A DNA stretch of 20,000 nt from an uncultured virus (IMG/VR IMGVR_UViG_3300022602_000070) (lineage: Duplodnaviria > Heunggongvirae > Uroviricota > Caudoviricetes), in IMG/VR virus record IMGVR_UViG_3300022602_000070; one strand, written 5' to 3'. The first letter of the stretch is position 1. Each line of letters opens with the position of its first letter. This document shows positions 4,833 through 19,824 of this stretch, one piece after another. A program made the translations under genes and the position numbers. A model generated the notes under the pieces. The model saw only the letters and a list, made by a program, of their open reading frames with translations. It was not told where the DNA came from and did no database searches.

Positions 4833-6298
4833 CCGTAAAATTAGTGATTCTAGACGAAGTTAACATAAAATTTGAGAATTTATCTCTCGAAGCTCGCAAA
4901 CGTTTGGCCAATACATTTAAGTATGAAGATCCAACTGCACGTTATCGGCCTGCTTATAAATTAGGTCGATGGGATGGTAAAGTGTCGATGTTTGGCCTCG
5001 GTGGAAATGGCTATCTTAGCCAGCTAGAAAAGTGTCTTAGCATACTTTCAGACATGGATATTGATATCGATGAATTAGAAGATTTGCGAACAACTCCTAA
5101 AATCGAATTTACACCTGTGACTGAAACATACTGGGCAGATCAAGGAAAAGTGTGGCCAAAAGGTCATCAACAAGAAGGTAAACCTATCATGTTGCGTGAC
5201 TATCAAGTTGACGCAATTAACACATTTTTATCAAATACACAATCGTTACAAGAAATTGCAACAGGTGCAGGAAAAACAATTACGACAGCAACATTAAGTC
5301 AACTTGCAGAAAAATTTGGTCGTACAATTACTATTGTTCCTAATAAAAGTTTAGTAGAACAAACAGAAGAAGATTTCGTTGCAGTTGGGTTAGATGTGGG
5401 TGTTTACTACGGGGATCGCAAGGATCTTAATAAAACACATACTATTTGCACATGGCAAAGTTTAAACATATTAGATAAGAAAAGTAAGAATTGGGATGCC
5501 GATGTGGCAATAACATTAGCAGAATTCTTAGACGGAGTTAAGACTGTTATTGTCGATGAAGTACATATGGCAAAGGCAGAAGTTTTAAAGAATTTACTCA
5601 CACAAAATTTGTGTAACGCACCTATACGTTGGGGATTAACTGGTACTGTTCCTAAAGACGAATTTGAAGCAGAACCTATTTTTGCTAGTATAGGTCCAGT
5701 AGTTGGCGGCATTAAAGCACACGAATTACAAGAGATGGGAGTACTTAGCAATTTACACGTAAATGTACTACAACTCATAGATTTACCAGAATTTAAAACA
5801 TATCAAGAAGAATTGAAATATCTTGTTACTAACAAAGACAGGATGACATATTTTAGTAGACTTGTTAAAGGCATAGCAGATTCAGGCAACACATTGATTC
5901 TAGTTAATAGAATCGATACAGGCAAATTATTAACAGAAATGATAGAAGGCGCAGTGTTTATTTCAGGTGAAGTTAAAGGAAAAGACCGTAAAGAGGAATA
6001 CAAAGAACATGCAACAATGGATAATAAAGTTACGGTCGCGACCTTTGGTGTCGCGGCTGTTGGAATTAATATACCTAGGATCTTTAACCTGGTTCTTCTT
6101 GAGCCTGGCAAGTCGTTTGTCAGGGTTATTCAGTCGATAGGACGAGGAATTCGTAAAGCAGAAGACAAGGACTTTGTACAAATCTGGGACGTAACTTCCA
6201 CTTGTAAATTCGCCAAGCGTCACCTCACAACGAGGAAAAAATATTACAAGGATGCCAAGTATCCATTTACTTTAGAAAAAGTGGATTGGCAAAAATAA
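4829..6298 (+). CDS. uvsW: Superfamily 2 DNA helicase, UvsW-like
   Basis: LRDYQ Q-motif, ATGAGKT, DEVH, GLTGT, QSIGRGIR. Start placed at ATG 4829 (ATGA overlap) rather than 4784. Confidence 0.9.
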   Translation: MTVKLVILDEVNIKFENLSLEARKRLANTFKYEDPTARYRPAYKLGRWDGKVSMFGLGGNGYLSQLEKCLSILSDMDIDIDELEDLRTTPKIEFTPVTETYWADQGKVWPKGHQQEGKPIMLRDYQVDAINTFLSNTQSLQEIATGAGKTITTATLSQLAEKFGRTITIVPNKSLVEQTEEDFVAVGLDVGVYYGDRKDLNKTHTICTWQSLNILDKKSKNWDADVAITLAEFLDGVKTVIVDEVHMAKAEVLKNLLTQNLCNAPIRWGLTGTVPKDEFEAEPIFASIGPVVGGIKAHELQEMGVLSNLHVNVLQLIDLPEFKTYQEELKYLVTNKDRMTYFSRLVKGIADSGNTLILVNRIDTGKLLTEMIEGAVFISGEVKGKDRKEEYKEHATMDNKVTVATFGVAAVGINIPRIFNLVLLEPGKSFVRVIQSIGRGIRKAEDKDFVQIWDVTSTCKFAKRHLTTRKKYYKDAKYPFTLEKVDWQK

Positions 6299-6304
6299 GG
6301 AATT

Positions 6305-6811
6305 ATGCAGATATTAACATTAGACAACCAAACATTTTCATTAAACAATTTACCAGAAGAGGTTGATGAAAATACTAGATTCGCTGTATTAGATAACAGC
6401 AATCCGGCAGATCCAGATTTTTTGTTTATGCCGCTGATATTCTTAGAAAGTTTTAACGCACCAGCTATGGTATTGCGCATCGGAGATGATGAAATAGCTA
6501 TGCCACTTGATTGGTGTATAGCTGTAGGAGATAGCACTAGTGCTTGTGACATTGAAATTTTACCTTTAACTAGTTTAAATGATAGAGGATTTGAAGCATT
6601 GTGTTTTAATCCATTAAGTTCGTTTAGGGTAGAGTTTAAAAAGATAGAAATTGTAAATTTTTATAATGATGTTAAATGGTATTTTCCTAAAATGAAAAAC
6701 GGCCAATTATTATCAACTCCTACACGTTTTGGTCACAAGCCCGACTGCGTATATTTTGTTAAAGAAATATCAAAACAAAATGAAATTATTCAATTGGATA
6801 AAATACTATGA
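6305..6811 (+). CDS. Hypothetical protein, beta-rich
   Basis: 168-aa ORF with AAGGA RBS, packed in the operon. Confidence 0.8.
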   Translation: MQILTLDNQTFSLNNLPEEVDENTRFAVLDNSNPADPDFLFMPLIFLESFNAPAMVLRIGDDEIAMPLDWCIAVGDSTSACDIEILPLTSLNDRGFEALCFNPLSSFRVEFKKIEIVNFYNDVKWYFPKMKNGQLLSTPTRFGHKPDCVYFVKEISKQNEIIQLDKIL

Positions 6812-7455
6812 GTTTAAAGATAGCATATTTTCAACCTACTGTTATTTGTATTGACAATATTCCTCCCGTGGAGTTTAGTAAAATATATACGTTAGTAGAA
6901 GCATTGCATAGCAGACCAGAACTAAACGATTCCGGCAATCCATTGATTAGCATTCGTGGCGGACAACAAATACAAATTTTTCCTAATGACAAATTAGATA
7001 TAGATGTTTCTTGGTTATTAAGTTATATTAAAAGTATTTGTCAAGGCTATTTAGAAATTATTACACAACAAGCTGGTGTAAACGATCTAAAACTATGTGA
7101 CATTATGATTAATAGTGTATGGACTATTCGACAAACAGAAGGCGAATATCAAGAAATGCACACACATCCTGCCGGCAATTTATCTGGAAATATGTACATT
7201 AGTGCCCCAGAATTAGTTGAAAACAGCCAACCAAGCGACAGTCAGATATTATTTAGATTACCTGCAACTAGAGATATTAACAGGTTTGTTATGACTGATA
7301 CTTGGAAATATAGTCCAACACCAGGAACTGTTTTAGTATTCCCAAGTCATATTCCGCACACAGTATATCCTTGGCGCGGCCAGGGCACACGTACTGTATT
7401 GGCTTTTGATGCAAGGTTAATTCCAAAGGAGGATCTATTCAATGGGGACGCTTAA
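6808..7455 (+). CDS. 2OG-Fe(II) oxygenase superfamily protein (TIGR02466-like, HxH type)
   Basis: W......G.YQEMHTH...LSG.MY, then P.PG.VLVFPS.IPH.V.P and R.VLAFD: DSBH metal and 2OG ligands. Confidence 0.85.
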   Translation: MSLKIAYFQPTVICIDNIPPVEFSKIYTLVEALHSRPELNDSGNPLISIRGGQQIQIFPNDKLDIDVSWLLSYIKSICQGYLEIITQQAGVNDLKLCDIMINSVWTIRQTEGEYQEMHTHPAGNLSGNMYISAPELVENSQPSDSQILFRLPATRDINRFVMTDTWKYSPTPGTVLVFPSHIPHTVYPWRGQGTRTVLAFDARLIPKEDLFNGDA

Positions 7456-12137: not shown

Positions 12138-12247
12138 AAAGATTTATTAACTGGTTGCTTGCACCGTATCGCAAGTACAAAGAAGATAAGGCGTATAAAC
12201 AACGCATCGAAGAATTGCGTAAACGTGATCCATATATCTACAAATGA
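12134..12247 (+). CDS. Small basic protein (37 aa, MKRFINWLLAPYRKYKEDKAYKQRIEELRKRDPYIYK), not in the ORF track
   Basis: ATGA overlaps at both ends (primase stop and carbamoyltransferase start); AAGGA RBS. Confidence 0.75.
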   Translation: MKRFINWLLAPYRKYKEDKAYKQRIEELRKRDPYIYK

Positions 12248-13185
12248 TACTCTGGGGCGTCAATGCATTAAATCACGGACATAGTATTGCTGTCTTTAAA
12301 GATGGCAAATTTGTCCATAATTATGTTGGTTCTAGTGATCAACTACAAAGTGCAACCACAGTGCCGGCACTAGGGTTAGGAAGTCCTGATAGAATTTTTT
12401 GGTACGAACGTCCATGGATTAAAAAGGCAAGACAAATTTATGCAGGACAATATCGCACAGCATTGAACTTGAATGTGTTACCCAAGCGATACATGAATAA
12501 TTACAAATATGCACCTATCACATATACTCCTCACCATGCTAGTCATGCTGCCGCTGGTTATTATACTAGTCCGTTTAACCATTGTGCAGTTGTTGTTCTT
12601 GATGCAATCGGAGAATTTGAGTGTGCCACAATCTGGGAAGCAAAACACGGTGAAATGACTAAAGTGTGGAGTCGTAGTTATCCACATAGTTTGGGTTTGT
12701 TTTATAGTGCATTTACAAAACTATGCGGACTTACTCCAATCAAAGATGAATACTTGTTACAACAAATGGCCCAGCAAGGTGACAAGTGGCGCTATTTTAA
12801 AGAAGTTAATAGTTACATAACTGGCACAGTTGATTTGAATTATAATTTCCACAGAGGGGTATTAAATTGGCCTTATCCCATTAATAATTTACAAGATCAG
12901 TGTGATATAGCGGCCGCAGTACAAGATGCATTTGAAGTACAAATCGGCTCGGTAATGAGCTTGGCAAAAGAATTAACGAATGCAGACTGTTTGGTTTATA
13001 TGGGCGGGTGTGCTATGAATAGCCAAGCAAACAAACGCTATGTTGAACCTATGTTTAAGTATCGTTGGAGTTTGCCCAACCCCGGAGATCCAAGCAGTAG
13101 TATAGGCGCAGTCGTGTATCATACCAAACAAAGAGTATGGGATCACAAGTGGGATCCTGTCAAACACATTGAGATTAACGTATAA
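12244..13185 (+). CDS. Carbamoyltransferase (NodU/CmcH/TobZ family), N-terminal Kae1-like domain only
   Basis: HHASHAAAGYYTSPF, VLDAIGE, YPHSLGLFYS, DIAAAVQ, GGCAMN..AN, PNPGD...IGA. Ends at 313 aa without the C-terminal YrdC-like domain. Confidence 0.85.
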   Translation: MILWGVNALNHGHSIAVFKDGKFVHNYVGSSDQLQSATTVPALGLGSPDRIFWYERPWIKKARQIYAGQYRTALNLNVLPKRYMNNYKYAPITYTPHHASHAAAGYYTSPFNHCAVVVLDAIGEFECATIWEAKHGEMTKVWSRSYPHSLGLFYSAFTKLCGLTPIKDEYLLQQMAQQGDKWRYFKEVNSYITGTVDLNYNFHRGVLNWPYPINNLQDQCDIAAAVQDAFEVQIGSVMSLAKELTNADCLVYMGGCAMNSQANKRYVEPMFKYRWSLPNPGDPSSSIGAVVYHTKQRVWDHKWDPVKHIEINV

Positions 13186-15903: not shown

Positions 15904-16596
15904 ATGAGACTACGAGAATTCTTCAGCGAAAACTATGCAACCAACACCGGCCTAGGCATGGGTAAAGAAAGGCACCAGGATCAACAGTTACTGGAACAGC
16001 CTTCAGAACAAGTACGTCAACTACAGCAACAGTTACTGGATCTTGGTTATGATTTGGGACGTTATGGCCCCAAAGGCGATGGCATTGATGGCTTAATGGG
16101 CCCATATACACAGGCCGCCTTAGATGCTTATAATAAGAAAATCCCCCCGGAACAAGTCGCTAAACCCGACGCTACAGAGCTAGATACCTTTGATCGCAAG
16201 CATAAATCCTCGGGTAACAACTCAGGTGGATTACCTGCACAAGGTCCTATTACTGGCGAGTATAATCGTATAGTACACATGCCCGATGGCTCAATGGGTC
16301 ATCATCCTGGAGTTGATATTGGCGCACACGAAGGCAGTGATGTCACTAGTCCTGTAGATGGAAAGATAATATTTGCTGGTCCTGCTAACACAGCTGGTAA
16401 CTTGATAGAACTCATGGGCACAAACGGTGAAAAACATCGCTTTATGCACTTGAGTAAGATATTGGTTAAAACAGGTGAACAAGTGGATAAAGGTGATGTT
16501 ATTGGACTAGTGGGCAATACTGGCTATAGTCACGGAGCACACTTACACTGGGAAAAATACGCTAGCAATGGCAGTCAAACAAACCCTATAGCATAA
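15904..16596 (+). CDS. Peptidoglycan-binding domain plus M23 family metallopeptidase
   Basis: VRQLQQQLLDLGY...DGLMGPYTQAAL (PG_binding_1); HPGVD (HxxxD), HL, GNTG.S.GAHLHWE (HxH). CTAAATA ends 6 nt before the ATG. Confidence 0.9.
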   Translation: MRLREFFSENYATNTGLGMGKERHQDQQLLEQPSEQVRQLQQQLLDLGYDLGRYGPKGDGIDGLMGPYTQAALDAYNKKIPPEQVAKPDATELDTFDRKHKSSGNNSGGLPAQGPITGEYNRIVHMPDGSMGHHPGVDIGAHEGSDVTSPVDGKIIFAGPANTAGNLIELMGTNGEKHRFMHLSKILVKTGEQVDKGDVIGLVGNTGYSHGAHLHWEKYASNGSQTNPIA

Positions 16597-16847: not shown

Positions 16848-17050
16848 AAGTCTAGTGAGTTAGAGACAATATTGGCAATGAGTTTATTGGGGCTAGCAGT
16901 AGTATTATTAATACGATCAATGTCAGCTAACGCTAGTTCTAGTATATTTACACGTTCTTCCAGAGTGTATACACGGTTGCGCAAATTGACTGAATCTAGC
17001 AAGCTGAGTAGACCGGTAATTAAGCGGGGGATAATCAAGTGTGTGTCCAT
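16844..17050 (-). CDS. Small coiled-coil hypothetical protein (68 aa)
   Basis: Heptad LEERVNILELAL; minus-strand CTATATA-ctagt-ATG suggests a leaderless start. Confidence 0.6.
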   Translation of the reverse strand: MDTHLIIPRLITGLLSLLDSVNLRNRVYTLEERVNILELALADIDRINNTTASPNKLIANIVSNSLDL

Positions 17051-17270
17051 ACTAGTATATAGTAGAGAAAGGGTTCTTGGGGAATCGTTTAGGACCCGCG
17101 CAAAAAATTATAAAGAAGTACTTATAGATTTAGAGGGGTGTTTTTACTTCGGTACCCATGCGCTTGTTGCGCTTGTAATAGTTTTGTAATATATACGTCT
17201 GGTGCCCCTGAGCCCCCACCCTCTCGACCAATTCTTTTTTATCTGATATCGGTCACTGATTCCGAAATCG

Positions 17271-17330
17271 AAAAGAAAAAAAGTCCCTAACCTTACTGCC
17301 GGGAGCGAATCGGACTTACTGGTTAGGGAC
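17271..17330 (-). terminator. Intrinsic terminator of the minus-strand early region
   Basis: Perfect 10-bp stem 17283-17292/17321-17330 followed on the minus strand by TTTTTTTCTTTT. Confidence 0.75.
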
Positions 17331-17397
17331 CACACTACCGACACAACCTAGTGGGAGCGAATCACGCGAGTTGTGCCTTACTGTATGCGGTATAGCT
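17276..17397 (-). ncRNA. Candidate structured sRNA or 3'UTR element with two identical anti-RBS loops (AUUCGCUCC), ending in a terminator
   Basis: Two hairpins (stems CACAAC/GTTGTG + GTG/CAC; GTCCCTAACC/GGTTAGGGAC + CCG/CGG) share the same 9-nt loop; three CAGUAAG motifs; U7 tail. Confidence 0.65.
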
Positions 17398-18282
17398 CTA
17401 GCGGCTATTGCGCATACATGTAACCTCTGCTACTGCCCTCCACTTATCGGGCATGCTAGCTCTTAAGTCTGCTACCTTAAGGACTGTACGCAAGCTCAGC
17501 TCACGCATACGATCCTTGTTGGCTTCTACAAAGTCTACTACATCCAGCTTGGCTTGATCACTAAGCTCATAGCTGTCTAACATGCCATGCTCAGTAACTA
17601 CCTGCTTAATACGGAGTACCTTCTCACGCTCTGTATCAATAGTCAAGTCCAAGTAGTGGCAACGGCTTTCCAATGCTTCCAAGTGATCCTTAAGCTTCTT
17701 AGACTTCACATGATCGAACTTGATATTGGTAATAAAGATAGCACCGCCTTTGAACTCGAAGCTGTTGGGCACACCTTCACTGCGTAGGAGCCTGCTGTCA
17801 GTGTTCCAATGGATAGTACGCTTCTTGCTGGTATCCAAAGCCGCTTTCAAGATGTTAAGGCTAAGGTCATCTAACAGTACTGAGTCACAGTCATCAAATA
17901 CTAGGATACACTTCTTGTCCGAATACTCATAGAGTTTGCTGTACAAGCCAATTGCTGACATTGCACCCTTGACCACTTCATACTTCTTGAGCTTTGAATC
18001 ATTAGCTACATCAGCGAAGACATCATGCTTTGATAGCACCTTCTCAACACCAAAGCTCTTACCTACGCCCGGAGGGCCTGTGACAATCATAGCCCTAACA
18101 TCACCCTTCTTCACAGCACGGGTCATGTCTTCTAAGATACCAAAACGATCACGCAAGCGATCCAAGATCTCTTCGTCTGTTTCATTGCGCAAGTCCTTCT
18201 TGACCGATTCCTGTTCAAGACTTGCTGTTTTGGGTTCTTGTTGTAATGCCATAAGCATCTTGCTCGTTACGACTCTAGCCAT
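17398..18282 (-). CDS. AAA+ / P-loop ATPase
   Basis: Walker A GPPGVGKS, Walker B LVFDDCD, sensor-1 IFITN, arginine finger ALESRC, ELSLR. Confidence 0.88.
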   Translation of the reverse strand: MARVVTSKMLMALQQEPKTASLEQESVKKDLRNETDEEILDRLRDRFGILEDMTRAVKKGDVRAMIVTGPPGVGKSFGVEKVLSKHDVFADVANDSKLKKYEVVKGAMSAIGLYSKLYEYSDKKCILVFDDCDSVLLDDLSLNILKAALDTSKKRTIHWNTDSRLLRSEGVPNSFEFKGGAIFITNIKFDHVKSKKLKDHLEALESRCHYLDLTIDTEREKVLRIKQVVTEHGMLDSYELSDQAKLDVVDFVEANKDRMRELSLRTVLKVADLRASMPDKWRAVAEVTCMRNSR

Positions 18283-18286
18283 TAGT

Positions 18287-18341
18287 TTCGCTCCTTAATG
18301 TTGTTAGTCTATATTATACTAGTCAATTAGGGAAATGTCAC
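18287..18341 (-). promoter_or_regulatory. Early sigma70 promoter plus GGAGCGAA RBS for the AAA ATPase
   Basis: GTGACA (18341-18336), 17-nt spacer, TATAAT (18318-18313); AAGGAGCGAAACTAATG. Confidence 0.8.
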
Positions 18342-18533
18342 TAGTAAATGGTAATACAGCACACCTGCCATCACCAAATACCAAATGATACTTTCCAAAT
18401 TGAATATGATGCCCACAAGAACCATCAGCCCCAAGCCTACCAAAAAGTGTAACATGAAACCAGTTTGAAATACCATCAAACTCAATAACATGACTATGGG
18501 CAAGAATACAAAGAAGCTGATGATTCTTAACAT
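18327..18533 (-). CDS. Small membrane protein (2-3 hydrophobic helices)
   Basis: 68 aa, almost entirely hydrophobic; starts 2 nt after the upstream stop. Confidence 0.7.
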   Translation of the reverse strand: MLRIISFFVFLPIVMLLSLMVFQTGFMLHFLVGLGLMVLVGIIFNLESIIWYLVMAGVLYYHLLVTFP

Positions 18534-18535
18534 GA

Positions 18536-18856
18536 TTAATCCAGTCTCGAACCAGCGTAGGCCTTCAAACCTAATGCTGTTAGGTAGTTGGCCAGTGCCT
18601 CTGCGCCTGCTTCCTTAACACTCACTGACTGAGTTGGAATCTTTGCTGGATCCCAATAGCTCAAGCATTTGGGTTTGTAGTCCTTGCGGAAGCCGGCTTT
18701 GATCAGTTCCTTTGCTTGAGCTGAGTTAGTACGGTCTACATAGACATCAACCCAACCAAAACCACATGCATCACGCTCGCCAATCTTTTGGTACATCTCA
18801 ACACCTGCGAGATGTGCTAGTACAAAACCTGCTTGAATCTGATCTGCTGTAATCAT
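18536..18856 (-). CDS. Hypothetical phage protein (ACGFGWV motif)
   Basis: 106 aa with its own promoter and AGGAGCGAAC RBS. Confidence 0.8.
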   Translation of the reverse strand: MITADQIQAGFVLAHLAGVEMYQKIGERDACGFGWVDVYVDRTNSAQAKELIKAGFRKDYKPKCLSYWDPAKIPTQSVSVKEAGAEALANYLTALGLKAYAGSRLD

Positions 18857-18858
18857 AG

Positions 18859-18918
18859 TTCGCTCCTATTAATTGCTGTTGAAGTAGTTATTATACTACC
18901 AAAGAGTTGGGTTGTCAA
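18859..18918 (-). promoter_or_regulatory. Consensus sigma70 early promoter plus GGAGCGAA RBS
   Basis: TTGACA (18918-18913), 17-nt spacer, TATAAT (18895-18890); AGGAGCGAACTATG. Confidence 0.9.
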
Positions 18919-19027
18919 TAGCCTTTCTTTTAGAGTGGGCTTTGATGCCTTCCTCTACGAACAAGCTCACTGCCAGAACTGCTAGGAATGCCCATAAAGG
19001 CCAAGTCATATAAAATGCTTCTAACAT
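18896..19027 (-). CDS. Small single-TM protein (43 aa, MLEAFYMTWPLWAFLAVLAVSLFVEEGIKAHSKRKAIDNPTLW), not in the ORF track
   Basis: Own consensus promoter and AAGGAGCGAAC RBS; hydrophobic helix followed by a basic tail; TAG stop. Confidence 0.75.
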   Translation of the reverse strand: MLEAFYMTWPLWAFLAVLAVSLFVEEGIKAHSKRKAIDNPTLW

Positions 19028-19029
19028 AG

Positions 19030-19082
19030 TTCGCTCCTTGTTACTATGAATTAATTATACTCTCTTACGCCACTTCTGTCAA
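19030..19082 (-). promoter_or_regulatory. Consensus sigma70 early promoter plus GGAGCGAA RBS
   Basis: TTGACA (19082-19077), 17-nt spacer, TATAAT (19059-19054); AAGGAGCGAACTATG. Confidence 0.9.
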
Positions 19083-19763
19083 ACGAATTACAAAACCGGA
19101 ATAATCTTTTTTGGCCCTGCCCTTAGCCTTCAATCCAAGCATAATGCCCTTAGGGTCTAAGAAGCGCAAGTCTGTTTCGTCTGCACTAGGAACACCCTCT
19201 GGGATTTTGTCGTAGACAGCAACCACTGACATACCTTGTAATAGTGCTTCTGCAACATCAGCATCATTGCCGTCTGCCTTGCTGAATGTAAGGTGGTAGT
19301 TAGGGTACTTAGCGACCTTACGACCTAAGACCTTAGTGTAGTCATAGAACTGTACATTAGGGAACAATTCGAAAATGTTCTTGTCGTGTATAGTGTACTT
19401 CTCCCAGCTCAAGTCGCTCGTACCATTCAAACGGAACACGGGAATTAATCCACGCTTCTCTGCGAACTTGATAGCCTTTTGAATGTCTTCGTAGAGGTCT
19501 TGCATGAAGTAATCACGTGCCTCAAAGAAGTATTTGGTCTTGCGGATGCGAGCCTTTTGAATTGTATTCGTTGTCTCGCCCTTTTTGAACATACCGCCAC
19601 GCCCTGCTAGATTAAGGCAAGCGGCCGTGCATCCTGCTGTCCGCTTTGGGCATGTTTCACGCCCGCTCAAGTCAGCAGGTGCAAGGTGCAGGATGAAGCT
19701 GAGGTAGCCCATCTTAGTACCCTTTTGGATTTTAGGGTTTGCTGTACTTAATAGTTTGAACAT
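19065..19763 (-). CDS. GP88-like phage protein with a Cys cluster (C-x6-C-x3-C)
   Basis: TCPKRTAGCTAACL, RLNGTSD and FYDYTK motifs as remembered for the 'gene product 88' family. Start at ATG 19763 after GGAGCGAAAC. Confidence 0.65.
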   Translation of the reverse strand: MFKLLSTANPKIQKGTKMGYLSFILHLAPADLSGRETCPKRTAGCTAACLNLAGRGGMFKKGETTNTIQKARIRKTKYFFEARDYFMQDLYEDIQKAIKFAEKRGLIPVFRLNGTSDLSWEKYTIHDKNIFELFPNVQFYDYTKVLGRKVAKYPNYHLTFSKADGNDADVAEALLQGMSVVAVYDKIPEGVPSADETDLRFLDPKGIMLGLKAKGRAKKDYSGFVIRLTEVA

Positions 19764-19765
19764 GT

Positions 19766-19824
19766 TTCGCTCCACGTTTCGTTGTTGATGTAAGTATTAT
19801 ACCCTCTTTTGGAGGGTATGTCAA
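19766..19824 (-). promoter_or_regulatory. Consensus sigma70 early promoter plus GGAGCGAA RBS
   Basis: TTGACA (19824-19819), 17-nt spacer, TATAAT (19801-19796); GTGGAGCGAAACATG. Confidence 0.9.

Follow-up and report, generated by a model that had tools for sequence, protein, structure and literature searches.

Two hairpins at the 3' end of a phage early operon: a candidate anti-Shine-Dalgarno RNA whose loop changes together with the early ribosome sites

Why would the early operon of a phage end in two hairpins with unrelated stems and one and the same loop, and why would that loop be the complement of the operon's own ribosome-binding sites (RBSs)? The question is raised by IMG/VR virus record IMGVR_UViG_3300022602_000070, a 20,000-nucleotide stretch from an uncultured member of the Caudoviricetes that was analysed at its full length and is called the window here. 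On its minus strand, directly behind a gene for an AAA ATPase, lies the element at issue, which an earlier note had interpreted from the letters alone as an anti-Shine-Dalgarno (anti-SD) RNA directed at early genes. We consider that this is probably what it is: a 3'-terminal anti-SD RNA that would pair with the early mRNAs, in cis or in trans, and would likely dampen their translation. On comparative sequence evidence we place the probability of this reading at about 0.65. The general kind, control by an antisense RNA that pairs with SD sequences, is known; what would be new is a clade-specific SD/anti-SD code for one temporal class of genes.

The element begins one base past the ATPase stop codon (TAG, 17400-17398, minus strand; feature coordinates are in Table 1). 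The earlier note had described twin hairpins with different stems round the same 9-nt loop, the second ending in a 10-bp stem and U7, and the sequence confirms each of these details at the positions given. The stems of hairpins 1 and 2 are unrelated, and the loop is AUUCGCUCC in both. In hairpin 2 the outer stem pairs GUCCCUAACC (17330-17321) with GGUUAGGGAC (17292-17283) and encloses an asymmetric internal loop (5' AGUAAGU, 3' CAGUAA) and an inner CCG/CGG stem. Ten base pairs followed directly by U7 have the form of an intrinsic terminator, and a simple terminator scan did not list the hairpin because its loop limit is 8 nt. Relatives have the same arrangement of hairpin and U-tract or a separate terminator hairpin just after. 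When both strands of 17270-17400 were folded, both loops were exposed and entirely unpaired in the minimum free energy (MFE) structure of the minus strand. The element shares the terminator hairpin and long U-tail of its parental mRNA, which is the usual form of small RNAs (sRNAs) derived from 3' untranslated regions (3'-UTRs).

A separate repeat was seen in the same region: the 8-mer CAGUAAGG occurs twice on the minus strand, 5' of hairpin 1 (17374-17381) and in the 3' internal loop and stem of hairpin 2 (17291-17298), and CAGUAAG-like words stand shortly past the ATPase stop in several relatives.

The word complementary to the loop, GGAGCGAA, is found six times in the window against 0.28 expected, and none of 200 shuffles reaches six. 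Two of these copies are simply the complements of the loops. The other four lie on the minus strand, each 2-4 nt ahead of an ATG, and match the loop exactly over 8 nt, which upholds the claim that the loop is the complement of the extended RBS of all four promoter-proximal early genes. By a consensus scan, each of these four genes has a near-perfect TTGACA-17-TATAAT promoter upstream, and the same cassette recurs four times in the order promoter, G-poor leader of about 16-23 nt, GGAGCGAA, 2-4 nt, ATG. Because the promoters are sigma-70-like, we infer that the genes are early and transcribed by the host polymerase. The complementarity of loop and site is beyond chance.

Predicted energies separate these four sites from the rest of the window. 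An 8-bp duplex of loop and site is worth -12.4 kcal/mol, and opening the mRNA sites costs 1.8-4.6 kcal/mol. An 11-nt loop segment gives -13.9 to -14.1 kcal/mol against the four promoter-proximal translation initiation regions (TIRs), compared with -2.9 to -9.5 kcal/mol against 18 plus-strand TIRs and -5.8 kcal/mol against the translationally coupled early gene at 18533. All of these are loop-only values; duplexes of the whole RNA with 86-nt TIRs were discarded as long and meaningless, with controls reaching -47.8 kcal/mol. In some phyla a conserved stretch of 16S rRNA, around position 770, is similar to GGAGCGAA.

If the loop is the working part of the element, it should be kept while the stems around it change. 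From a protein-anchored scan of IMG/VR, which gave 87 close ATPase relatives, 80 were retained (ATPase identity 73-100%), and the element follows the ATPase in 76 of them. TTCGCTCC lies within 260 nt downstream of the ATPase stop at 75 of the 80 loci, with two or more copies at 66, and at one further locus (L076) a single copy lies 420 nt downstream, beyond an inserted open reading frame. Throughout these relatives the ATPase strand has a T-run after the last hairpin. Among 118 instances from 61 distinct sequences, the MFE structure of the sequence itself leaves all nine loop nucleotides unpaired in 86 and forms the closing G-C pair in 85.

The loop being invariant, pattern- and anchor-based alignments were used for the element. 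The commonest geometry of hairpin 1 gave a gapless alignment of 33 distinct sequences (A2) in which 91.8% of the hairpin-1 cells are paired. Its outer stem has a covariation score of 0.709, compared with 0.206 +- 0.023 in shuffles (0 of 500 as high), and the score drops to 0.05-0.15 when the partners are slid against each other. At the six central positions all 198 cells hold standard pairs, with up to four pair types per position, and none is unpaired. Hairpin 2 has a different outer stem, mostly of 8-17 bp, in each of the 61 distinct sequences, round the constant core UAARY-CCG-AUUCGCUCC-CGG. The loop is thus conserved behind homologous ATPases while the stems covary, much as had been predicted.

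At least 123 IMG/VR stretches carry the 15-nt core, which has a second context: a single hairpin and a terminator behind a different conserved gene, with a new promoter after them. In IMG/VR the family is widespread among uncultivated phages of up to about 356 kb. Rfam release 15, applied to the whole window at the gathering score, gave no match to C4 antisense RNA, RsaE, RNAIII or any other family, and at E <= 10 the region 17150-17480 gave only two chance-level matches, both on the plus strand (a plant-virus 3'-UTR element and a microRNA). On this comparative evidence, the element is a conserved structured phage RNA family missing from Rfam.

The partner of the loop is kept as well. On the ATPase strand, 71 of the 80 loci have GGAGCGAA with a start codon within a few bases, mostly at a distance of 1-6 nt from the ATG; the nine that do not mostly have little upstream sequence or are the distant loci L078-L080. 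A 356-kb relative, 96% complete (G002), permits a genome-wide count. It holds 17 copies of GGAGCGAA on both strands, compared with two of the reversed word. Two are the complements of loops and 11 are of RBS type; eight of these 11 are clustered between 353,261 and 4,030, a span that runs over the contig ends and lies immediately upstream of the hairpins (5,004-5,092), and three are far from any element. Of its 66 promoters within one mismatch of consensus, seven are followed by GGAGCGAA, and all seven are in the cluster upstream of the hairpins. Among 407 predicted starts, 102 have GGAG, and the commonest 8-mer is GGAGCGAA (eight occurrences; the next has four), the others being diverse. From this count, of the kind that the earlier note had asked for, GGAGCGAA appears to be confined to early promoter cassettes and to mark a defined class of genes.

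Hairpin-type copies of the motif stand solely behind the ATPase in five large records. Third copies in large genomes were considered as extra hairpins and rejected; they are ribosome sites on the other strand, at some of which the complementarity to the hairpin extends to 15 nt. In a side observation on such sites, genes far from the element in L093, L083 and L087 have ribosome sites identical over 11-15 nt to the complement of the hairpin core (CCGGGAGCGAAUCGG). On their own mRNA these sites could fold into a small hairpin with the SD in its loop, which would allow a loop-loop kissing contact.

The most telling comparison is between clades. An alignment-based search with the ATPase gave 423 relatives, and two follow-up searches were centred on divergent members, one of them returning at least 438. 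After removal of loci with less than 150 nt downstream or with a duplicate of the downstream 203 nt, 254 distinct loci were scored with words of equal length. Three pairs of early RBS and loop emerged: GGAGCGA with UCGCUCC (clade A), GAGGGCA with UGCCCU(C) (clade B) and GGAGCUA with UAGCUCC (clade C). Clade B has the early site (A)GAGGGCA(A) and, behind the ATPase, two to four hairpins or single-stranded stretches with UGCCCU(C). Clade C has the early site AGGAGCUA(A) and a hairpin with covarying stems and the loop YUAGCUCCU.

Loops and sites were combined as cognates at 101 loci (71 of RBS class A, 19 of class B and 11 of class C) and as non-cognates at none, in any class. The earlier note had expected the loop to co-vary with each phage's early RBS, and in this sister-clade test it does. 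The number has to be read with the ATPase tree: in a FastTree of 246 ATPases A is one clade (support 100), B corresponds to two changes and C to 14, mostly of presence or absence, so the 101 combinations stand for roughly three independent events. The co-change is telling because nucleotides beyond the SD core (CGAA, GCA and CUA) are matched in each case. A loop word without a detected RBS class was found at 7 (A), 3 (B) and 8 (C) loci, neither at 85, and one locus was a tie; the promoter-linked TIR finder behind these assignments is a crude consensus scan that can mis-assign starts. Loop words numbered 152, 32 and 19 (A, B and C), compared with 6, 1 and 3 in reversed-word controls.

Exposure of the loop holds across the clades, 113 of 152 copies being wholly unpaired in A and 17 of 19 in C. 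In clade B, 39 of 53 copies have the 5-nt core unpaired, and 32 of these lie in hairpin loops behind 21 different stems. Complementarity to the SD that is kept through evolution and an exposed C/U-rich seed are both hallmarks of anti-SD regulatory RNAs, and both are found here. Taken together, we regard this as strong comparative evidence for a predicted pairing of the loop with the clade-specific early ribosome site. Some more distant relatives have neither element nor site. Two of the genomes examined, G009 and G011, have other ribosome sites (AAAGGAGCA-type), and no matching hairpin was found after their early cluster.

Two variant loci were also seen. L066 (3385-3520) has two standard loops and then a terminator hairpin with the loop AUUCCUCCCC, which is near the canonical anti-SD and is not the clade word. 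The divergent relative L366 (3789-3870) has two simple hairpins with 7-nt UCGCUCC loops and no internal loops, and most of its early sites are GGAGCA; it may represent an intermediate or degenerate form of the system.

We propose a model where host RNA polymerase would read the early cluster from its tandem consensus promoters and the transcripts would end in the two-hairpin module, whose exposed loops would serve as anti-SD sequences and base-pair with the extended site of the promoter-proximal early genes. As no terminator was recognised between the tandem promoters and the end of the cluster, the element should be present on every cluster transcript. Since all of these transcripts end at the same terminator, the loops could pair in cis with the RBSs of their own mRNA, and this cis route is no less plausible than action by a free sRNA. 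In trans, a stable, terminator-protected 3' fragment left after decay of the mRNA body could act, also on the few GGAGCGAA genes elsewhere; the three distant RBS-type sites of the 356-kb relative would need action of this kind. Pairing worth about -12 to -14 kcal/mol would cover the SD and compete with 30S binding, so negative feedback on early translation would be the most likely effect. A plausible extension, though an unproven one, is that early translation would be shut off progressively while stable 3' fragments build up.

The anti-SD interpretation of the earlier note came through every computational test that it had named. A look-up of RNA runs for 16900-19100 gave none. The further steps, that an RNA of ~120 nt is made, stable and accumulates, that it pairs in vivo, that its effect is repression and that it times the switch from early to middle genes, are those that we infer beyond these tests.

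The model has precedents in part. In Staphylococcus aureus, RNAIII and RsaE/RoxS use repeated C-rich hairpin loops to pair with the SD regions of a set of mRNAs, and the phage element resembles them in presenting the same C/U-rich anti-SD word in several hairpin loops. Those RNAs are bacterial and independently transcribed, and their short UCCC-type seeds face ordinary SDs, whereas the phage seed has 8-9 nt and matches a non-canonical extension of the SD that is specific to the early genes of this phage; the element has no Rfam match. The c4 RNA of phages P1 and P7 has two loop segments, is processed out of the 5' end of its operon and serves lysogenic immunity through one target region. The phage module differs in lying at the 3' end, after the last gene, in belonging to a large phage of virulent type and in having many targets; a c4-type position, upstream of the targets and with processing, was not found, the element being the operon's 3' end. 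The two are alike in that c4, as summarised in passages of PMC8198154 that cite Citron and Schuster (1990), is a phage-encoded antisense RNA from the same operon as its targets (c4-icd-ant) and blocks downstream genes by pairing near a ribosome site.

Closer in position is the icaR mRNA of S. aureus, in which, according to the relevant passages of PMC3868564, a 3'-UTR anti-SD word, UCCCCUG, pairs with the mRNA's own SD, blocks formation of the initiation complex and makes a substrate for RNase III. Both systems place a C/U-rich anti-SD word in the 3'-UTR of a transcript that bears the target SD. The icaR case as described there concerns one gene and one bacterial motif, whereas the phage word stands twice, in hairpin loops of a terminator module, reaches, by way of a private extended SD, many genes that belong to one temporal class, and changes together with that SD between clades.

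Two features of T4-like phages also bear on the cluster. Passages of PMC1702504 describe T4 early mRNAs with GGAG and a conserved 3' extension at the SD, a mark that RegB and S1 use for post-transcriptional shut-off. The window shares with this system, as so described, a T4-type replication-gene context and an early class marked at the SD; the reader of the mark is a protein nuclease aided by ribosomal protein S1 in T4, and a candidate RNA loop here. The promoter early stem-loops (PeSLs) of T4-like phages, in the passages of PMC4122927 that concern them, lie just upstream of each sigma-70-like early promoter, followed by the SD and start of a small early gene, and have been proposed as recombination cassettes. 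Our four near-identical sigma-70-like promoter-leader-SD-ATG units are similar, but the hairpins stand once, at the cluster end, with the loop as their conserved part, and those passages mention no complementarity between stem-loop and SD. The literature on phage-encoded anti-SD sRNAs and on the motif, in a coverage that leaves out most subscription journals, yielded no description of such an element.

Temporal control in large virulent phages has been understood mostly through transcription and the SD-cutting nuclease of T4, and the element offers a testable RNA counterpart. A whole early class has a non-canonical SD extension, and the operon that encodes it ends in an RNA showing the complement twice. 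We are attracted by the practical side as well: the three loop/site pairs are natural and mutually orthogonal, which makes them ready compensatory sets and possibly parts for orthogonal translational control.

Several observations weigh against this reading. The total fold stability of the element is unremarkable: the minus strand of 17270-17400 has a z-score of -1.91, with 8 of 200 shuffles equally good, so stability alone is insufficient to single the region out. Over the whole region the antisense equals or exceeds the sense strand in stability in 38 of 61 sequences, and its hairpin 1 is slightly more stable in 37 of 58; whole-region folding energies do not discriminate between the strands. 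The covariation of loop and site appears to rest on about three clade-level events, and within clade A both partners are invariant. An RBS word stands without a loop word within 200 nt at 31 A, 1 B and 17 C loci, and in part of the A group the element is some 800 nt further on, past an extra gene. A loop variant with U changed to A at position 2 (L015-17, L052 and L071) comes without extra GGAGCGAT sites. The uniform promoter-SD cassettes could partly reflect cassette shuffling, as the PeSL passages of PMC4122927 suggest for those units.

The geometry of the predicted contact is a further difficulty, in that pairing eight of the nine loop nucleotides would be topologically strained unless the inner stem of 2-3 bp opens. 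Being short and flanked by an internal loop, the inner stem could give way at the hairpin top and so permit 8-9 bp. The UUCG of the loop we take to be a YUNR-type turn, as in natural antisense RNAs. Pairing also leaves unexplained two conserved parts, which are invariant or nearly so: the 4x4 internal loop CCAA/GYAA of hairpin 1 (17366-17369) and the 5' bulge UAARY of hairpin 2 (17311-17320). These may be the mark of a protein partner, an RNase site or a processing signal.

What else could a paired loop do? The pairing may be real and yet protective or enhancing in cis, with the 3' loops holding the 5' sites in a circularised mRNA, so that the SD or the 3' end is shielded from nucleases or the early mRNAs are kept from a shut-off factor. 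An interaction between 5'- and 3'-UTR in the hbs mRNA of Bacillus subtilis, which reportedly affects stability, would be a precedent. In the 356-kb relative every promoter with the site precedes the element on its own strand, which puts loops and sites on shared transcripts. There would also be something to mask against, the T4 early SD with GGAG and its 3' extension being the target of RegB and S1 in the passages of PMC1702504 cited above. However, a duplex over the SD should block 30S binding regardless, and the three distant sites would not be reached in cis. A search of three relatives for the RegB family gave no match and is uninformative, as no control genome gave one either. We think protection unlikely, though it deserves to be kept in view.

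Less probable still, in our estimation, is that a protein binds the hairpins, be it an RNA-binding protein of phage or host, an antiterminator or a processing enzyme, and that the match to the ribosome sites is incidental or secondary. The invariant closing G-C pair fits this well, as do the internal loop and bulge just mentioned, which RBS pairing does not need, and the first loop nucleotide, an A that stays invariant though the base after GGAGCGAA varies. A protein site would leave unexplained that in each of three clades, with three different loop words, the early site is the exact complement of the loop. No Hfq homologue was found in three large relatives; a host protein could still be the partner.

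Two more distant readings concern the shared word itself. In the first, for which we see only a slim chance, loop and extended SD would form a phage-private orthogonal SD/anti-SD code for one temporal class, with a code word evolved separately in each clade (three are seen). At its boldest, this reading would make the RNA more than a repressor: a trans-acting anti-SD adaptor that chooses which mRNAs ribosomes see, with early mRNAs handed to, or withheld from, ribosomes whose anti-SD use the phage had altered. If true, infection would involve a switch of translational specificity that is encoded in RNA. A shade slimmer is the chance that the word acts in DNA, one DNA-binding protein reading a 7-8-bp word past each early promoter and, inverted, at the cluster end. 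A change in the specificity of such a protein would shift all sites together, so co-change between clades is predicted here too, and in the window the word stands 16-23 nt after the -10 hexamer. Yet it holds a fixed, SD-like distance to the ATG and contains the SD core, and its terminal copies are always in hairpin loops on covarying stems with G-U pairs favouring one strand, a signature of single-stranded RNA for which a duplex-DNA site would have no need.

An anti-SD RNA presupposes that the minus strand is the functional one, and we have taken it as such. The U-tract follows the hairpins on the minus, ATPase-bearing strand only. In the six central pairs of the hairpin-1 outer stem, seven cells hold G-U pairs that would be A-C on the antisense and none the reverse, and hairpin 2 has 82 G-U pairs in the sense compared with 28 in the antisense. 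At L013 and at two G007 loci the promoter and the gene that follow point the same way, hence no convergent transcript would make the other strand. The U-tract, the G-U bias and these non-convergent loci together lead us to reject, as the earlier note had leaned towards doing, a plus-strand Csr/Rsm-type decoy in which GGAGCGAAU loops would act as SD mimics titrating a translational repressor or the 30S subunit: despite a plus-strand fold (z -2.97) at least as good as the minus, the slight antisense advantage of hairpin 1 and the conserved sense A/C oppositions of the internal loop that would become G-U on the antisense in a reading of the layout, this decoy is scarcely credible, as it would place its GGA loops on a strand without a U-tract and with A-C mismatches where the other has G-U.

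Table 1. Positions of the two-hairpin element, its predicted target sites and the associated promoters in the window
Feature	Coordinates	Strand	Basis or remark
Whole 3'-terminal element, two hairpins and U-tract	17276..17397	-	sequence, fold, homologues behind ATPase
Hairpin 1: outer stem CACAAC/GUUGUG, internal loop, 3-bp inner stem GUG/CAC	17342..17377	-	MFE
Loop 1, 5'-AUUCGCUCC-3', complement of GGAGCGAA(U)	17354..17362	-	opening energy 0.16 kcal/mol
Hairpin 2, doubles as intrinsic terminator	17283..17330	-	sequence, MFE
Loop 2, 5'-AUUCGCUCC-3'	17302..17310	-	opening energy 0.10 kcal/mol
U7 tract, fixes strand and 3' end	17276..17282	-	T-run after last hairpin in relatives too
AAA ATPase (T4 NrdC.10-like, phrog_1250)	17398..18282	-	last gene of early operon; own ribosome site carries GGAGCGAA
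GGAGCGAA ribosome site, ATPase gene (ATG 18282)	18287..18294	-	loop pairing -14.1 kcal/mol
GGAGCGAA ribosome site, 106-aa gene (ATG 18856)	18859..18866	-	loop duplex computed
GGAGCGAA ribosome site, 43-aa gene (ATG 19027)	19030..19037	-	loop duplex computed
GGAGCGAA ribosome site, GP88-family gene (ATG 19763)	19766..19773	-	loop duplex computed
Sigma-70-like promoter before ATPase gene, 11/12	18313..18341	-	
Sigma-70-like promoter, 12/12	18890..18918	-	
Sigma-70-like promoter, 12/12	19054..19082	-	
Sigma-70-like promoter, 12/12	19796..19824	-	

The window as a whole had no near match in the phage collection. The nearest record is a 16.5-kb fragment (G001). Its plus strand carries, up to about 17189, a T4-type replication and recombination module with a gp32-like single-stranded DNA-binding protein, UvsX, UvsY, helicases, a primase and a DnaB-like helicase. 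The minus strand, from 20000 to 17398, carries small genes and the 294-aa AAA ATPase, whose best named relatives are hypothetical or 'NrdC.10' proteins of the Pseudomonas jumbo phage PA5oct (47% identity) and of T4-like Aeromonas phages. Of the early genes with the special ribosome site, the first (19065-19763, minus strand) codes for a member of the GP88 family (Pfam PF17338, E 4e-39) whose N-terminal part is rich in Cys. Among the replication genes are a 2-oxoglutarate-Fe(II) oxygenase (6808-7455) and a carbamoyltransferase-like protein (12244-13185), both on the plus strand, which could have auxiliary or nucleotide- or DNA-modification roles. An M23 peptidase with a peptidoglycan-binding domain (15904-16596, plus strand) adjoins the replication module and is probably a lysis or virion-associated wall hydrolase.

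A two-copy motif scan of 185,579 prokaryote genomes, one per species, returned 75 stretches and gave no clue to the host. A single one of these, L303, passed the test for the twin-hairpin layout with T-run and ATPase homologue; it is a 9.5-kb contig binned in a metagenome-assembled genome (MAG), its ATPase is 73% identical, and it looks like a phage contig. The first 40 loci were tandem repeats or palindromes resembling repetitive extragenic palindromic (REP) sequences, with the word in the stem. In bacterial MAGs such as L258, L265 and L279, among others, the same 11-mer forms the stem of REP-like palindromes (GGGAGCGAAU...AUUCGCUCCC) and also lies in tandem repeats; these are unrelated to the phage element and can be a source of false motif matches. 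The idea that the element mimics a CRISPR repeat, as an RNA anti-CRISPR, was dropped, the bacterial matches not being CRISPR arrays related to it.

Just beyond the terminator (17190-17275) the minus strand has a G-rich stretch (GAGGG..GGGG..TCGGGG-like), followed by TATATA and a short inverted repeat, GTTGC...GCAAC. The G-rich stretch recurs in the convergent intergenic space of many relatives, for example L036, L047 and L020; it may mark where the opposite operon ends or serve that operon as a control site.

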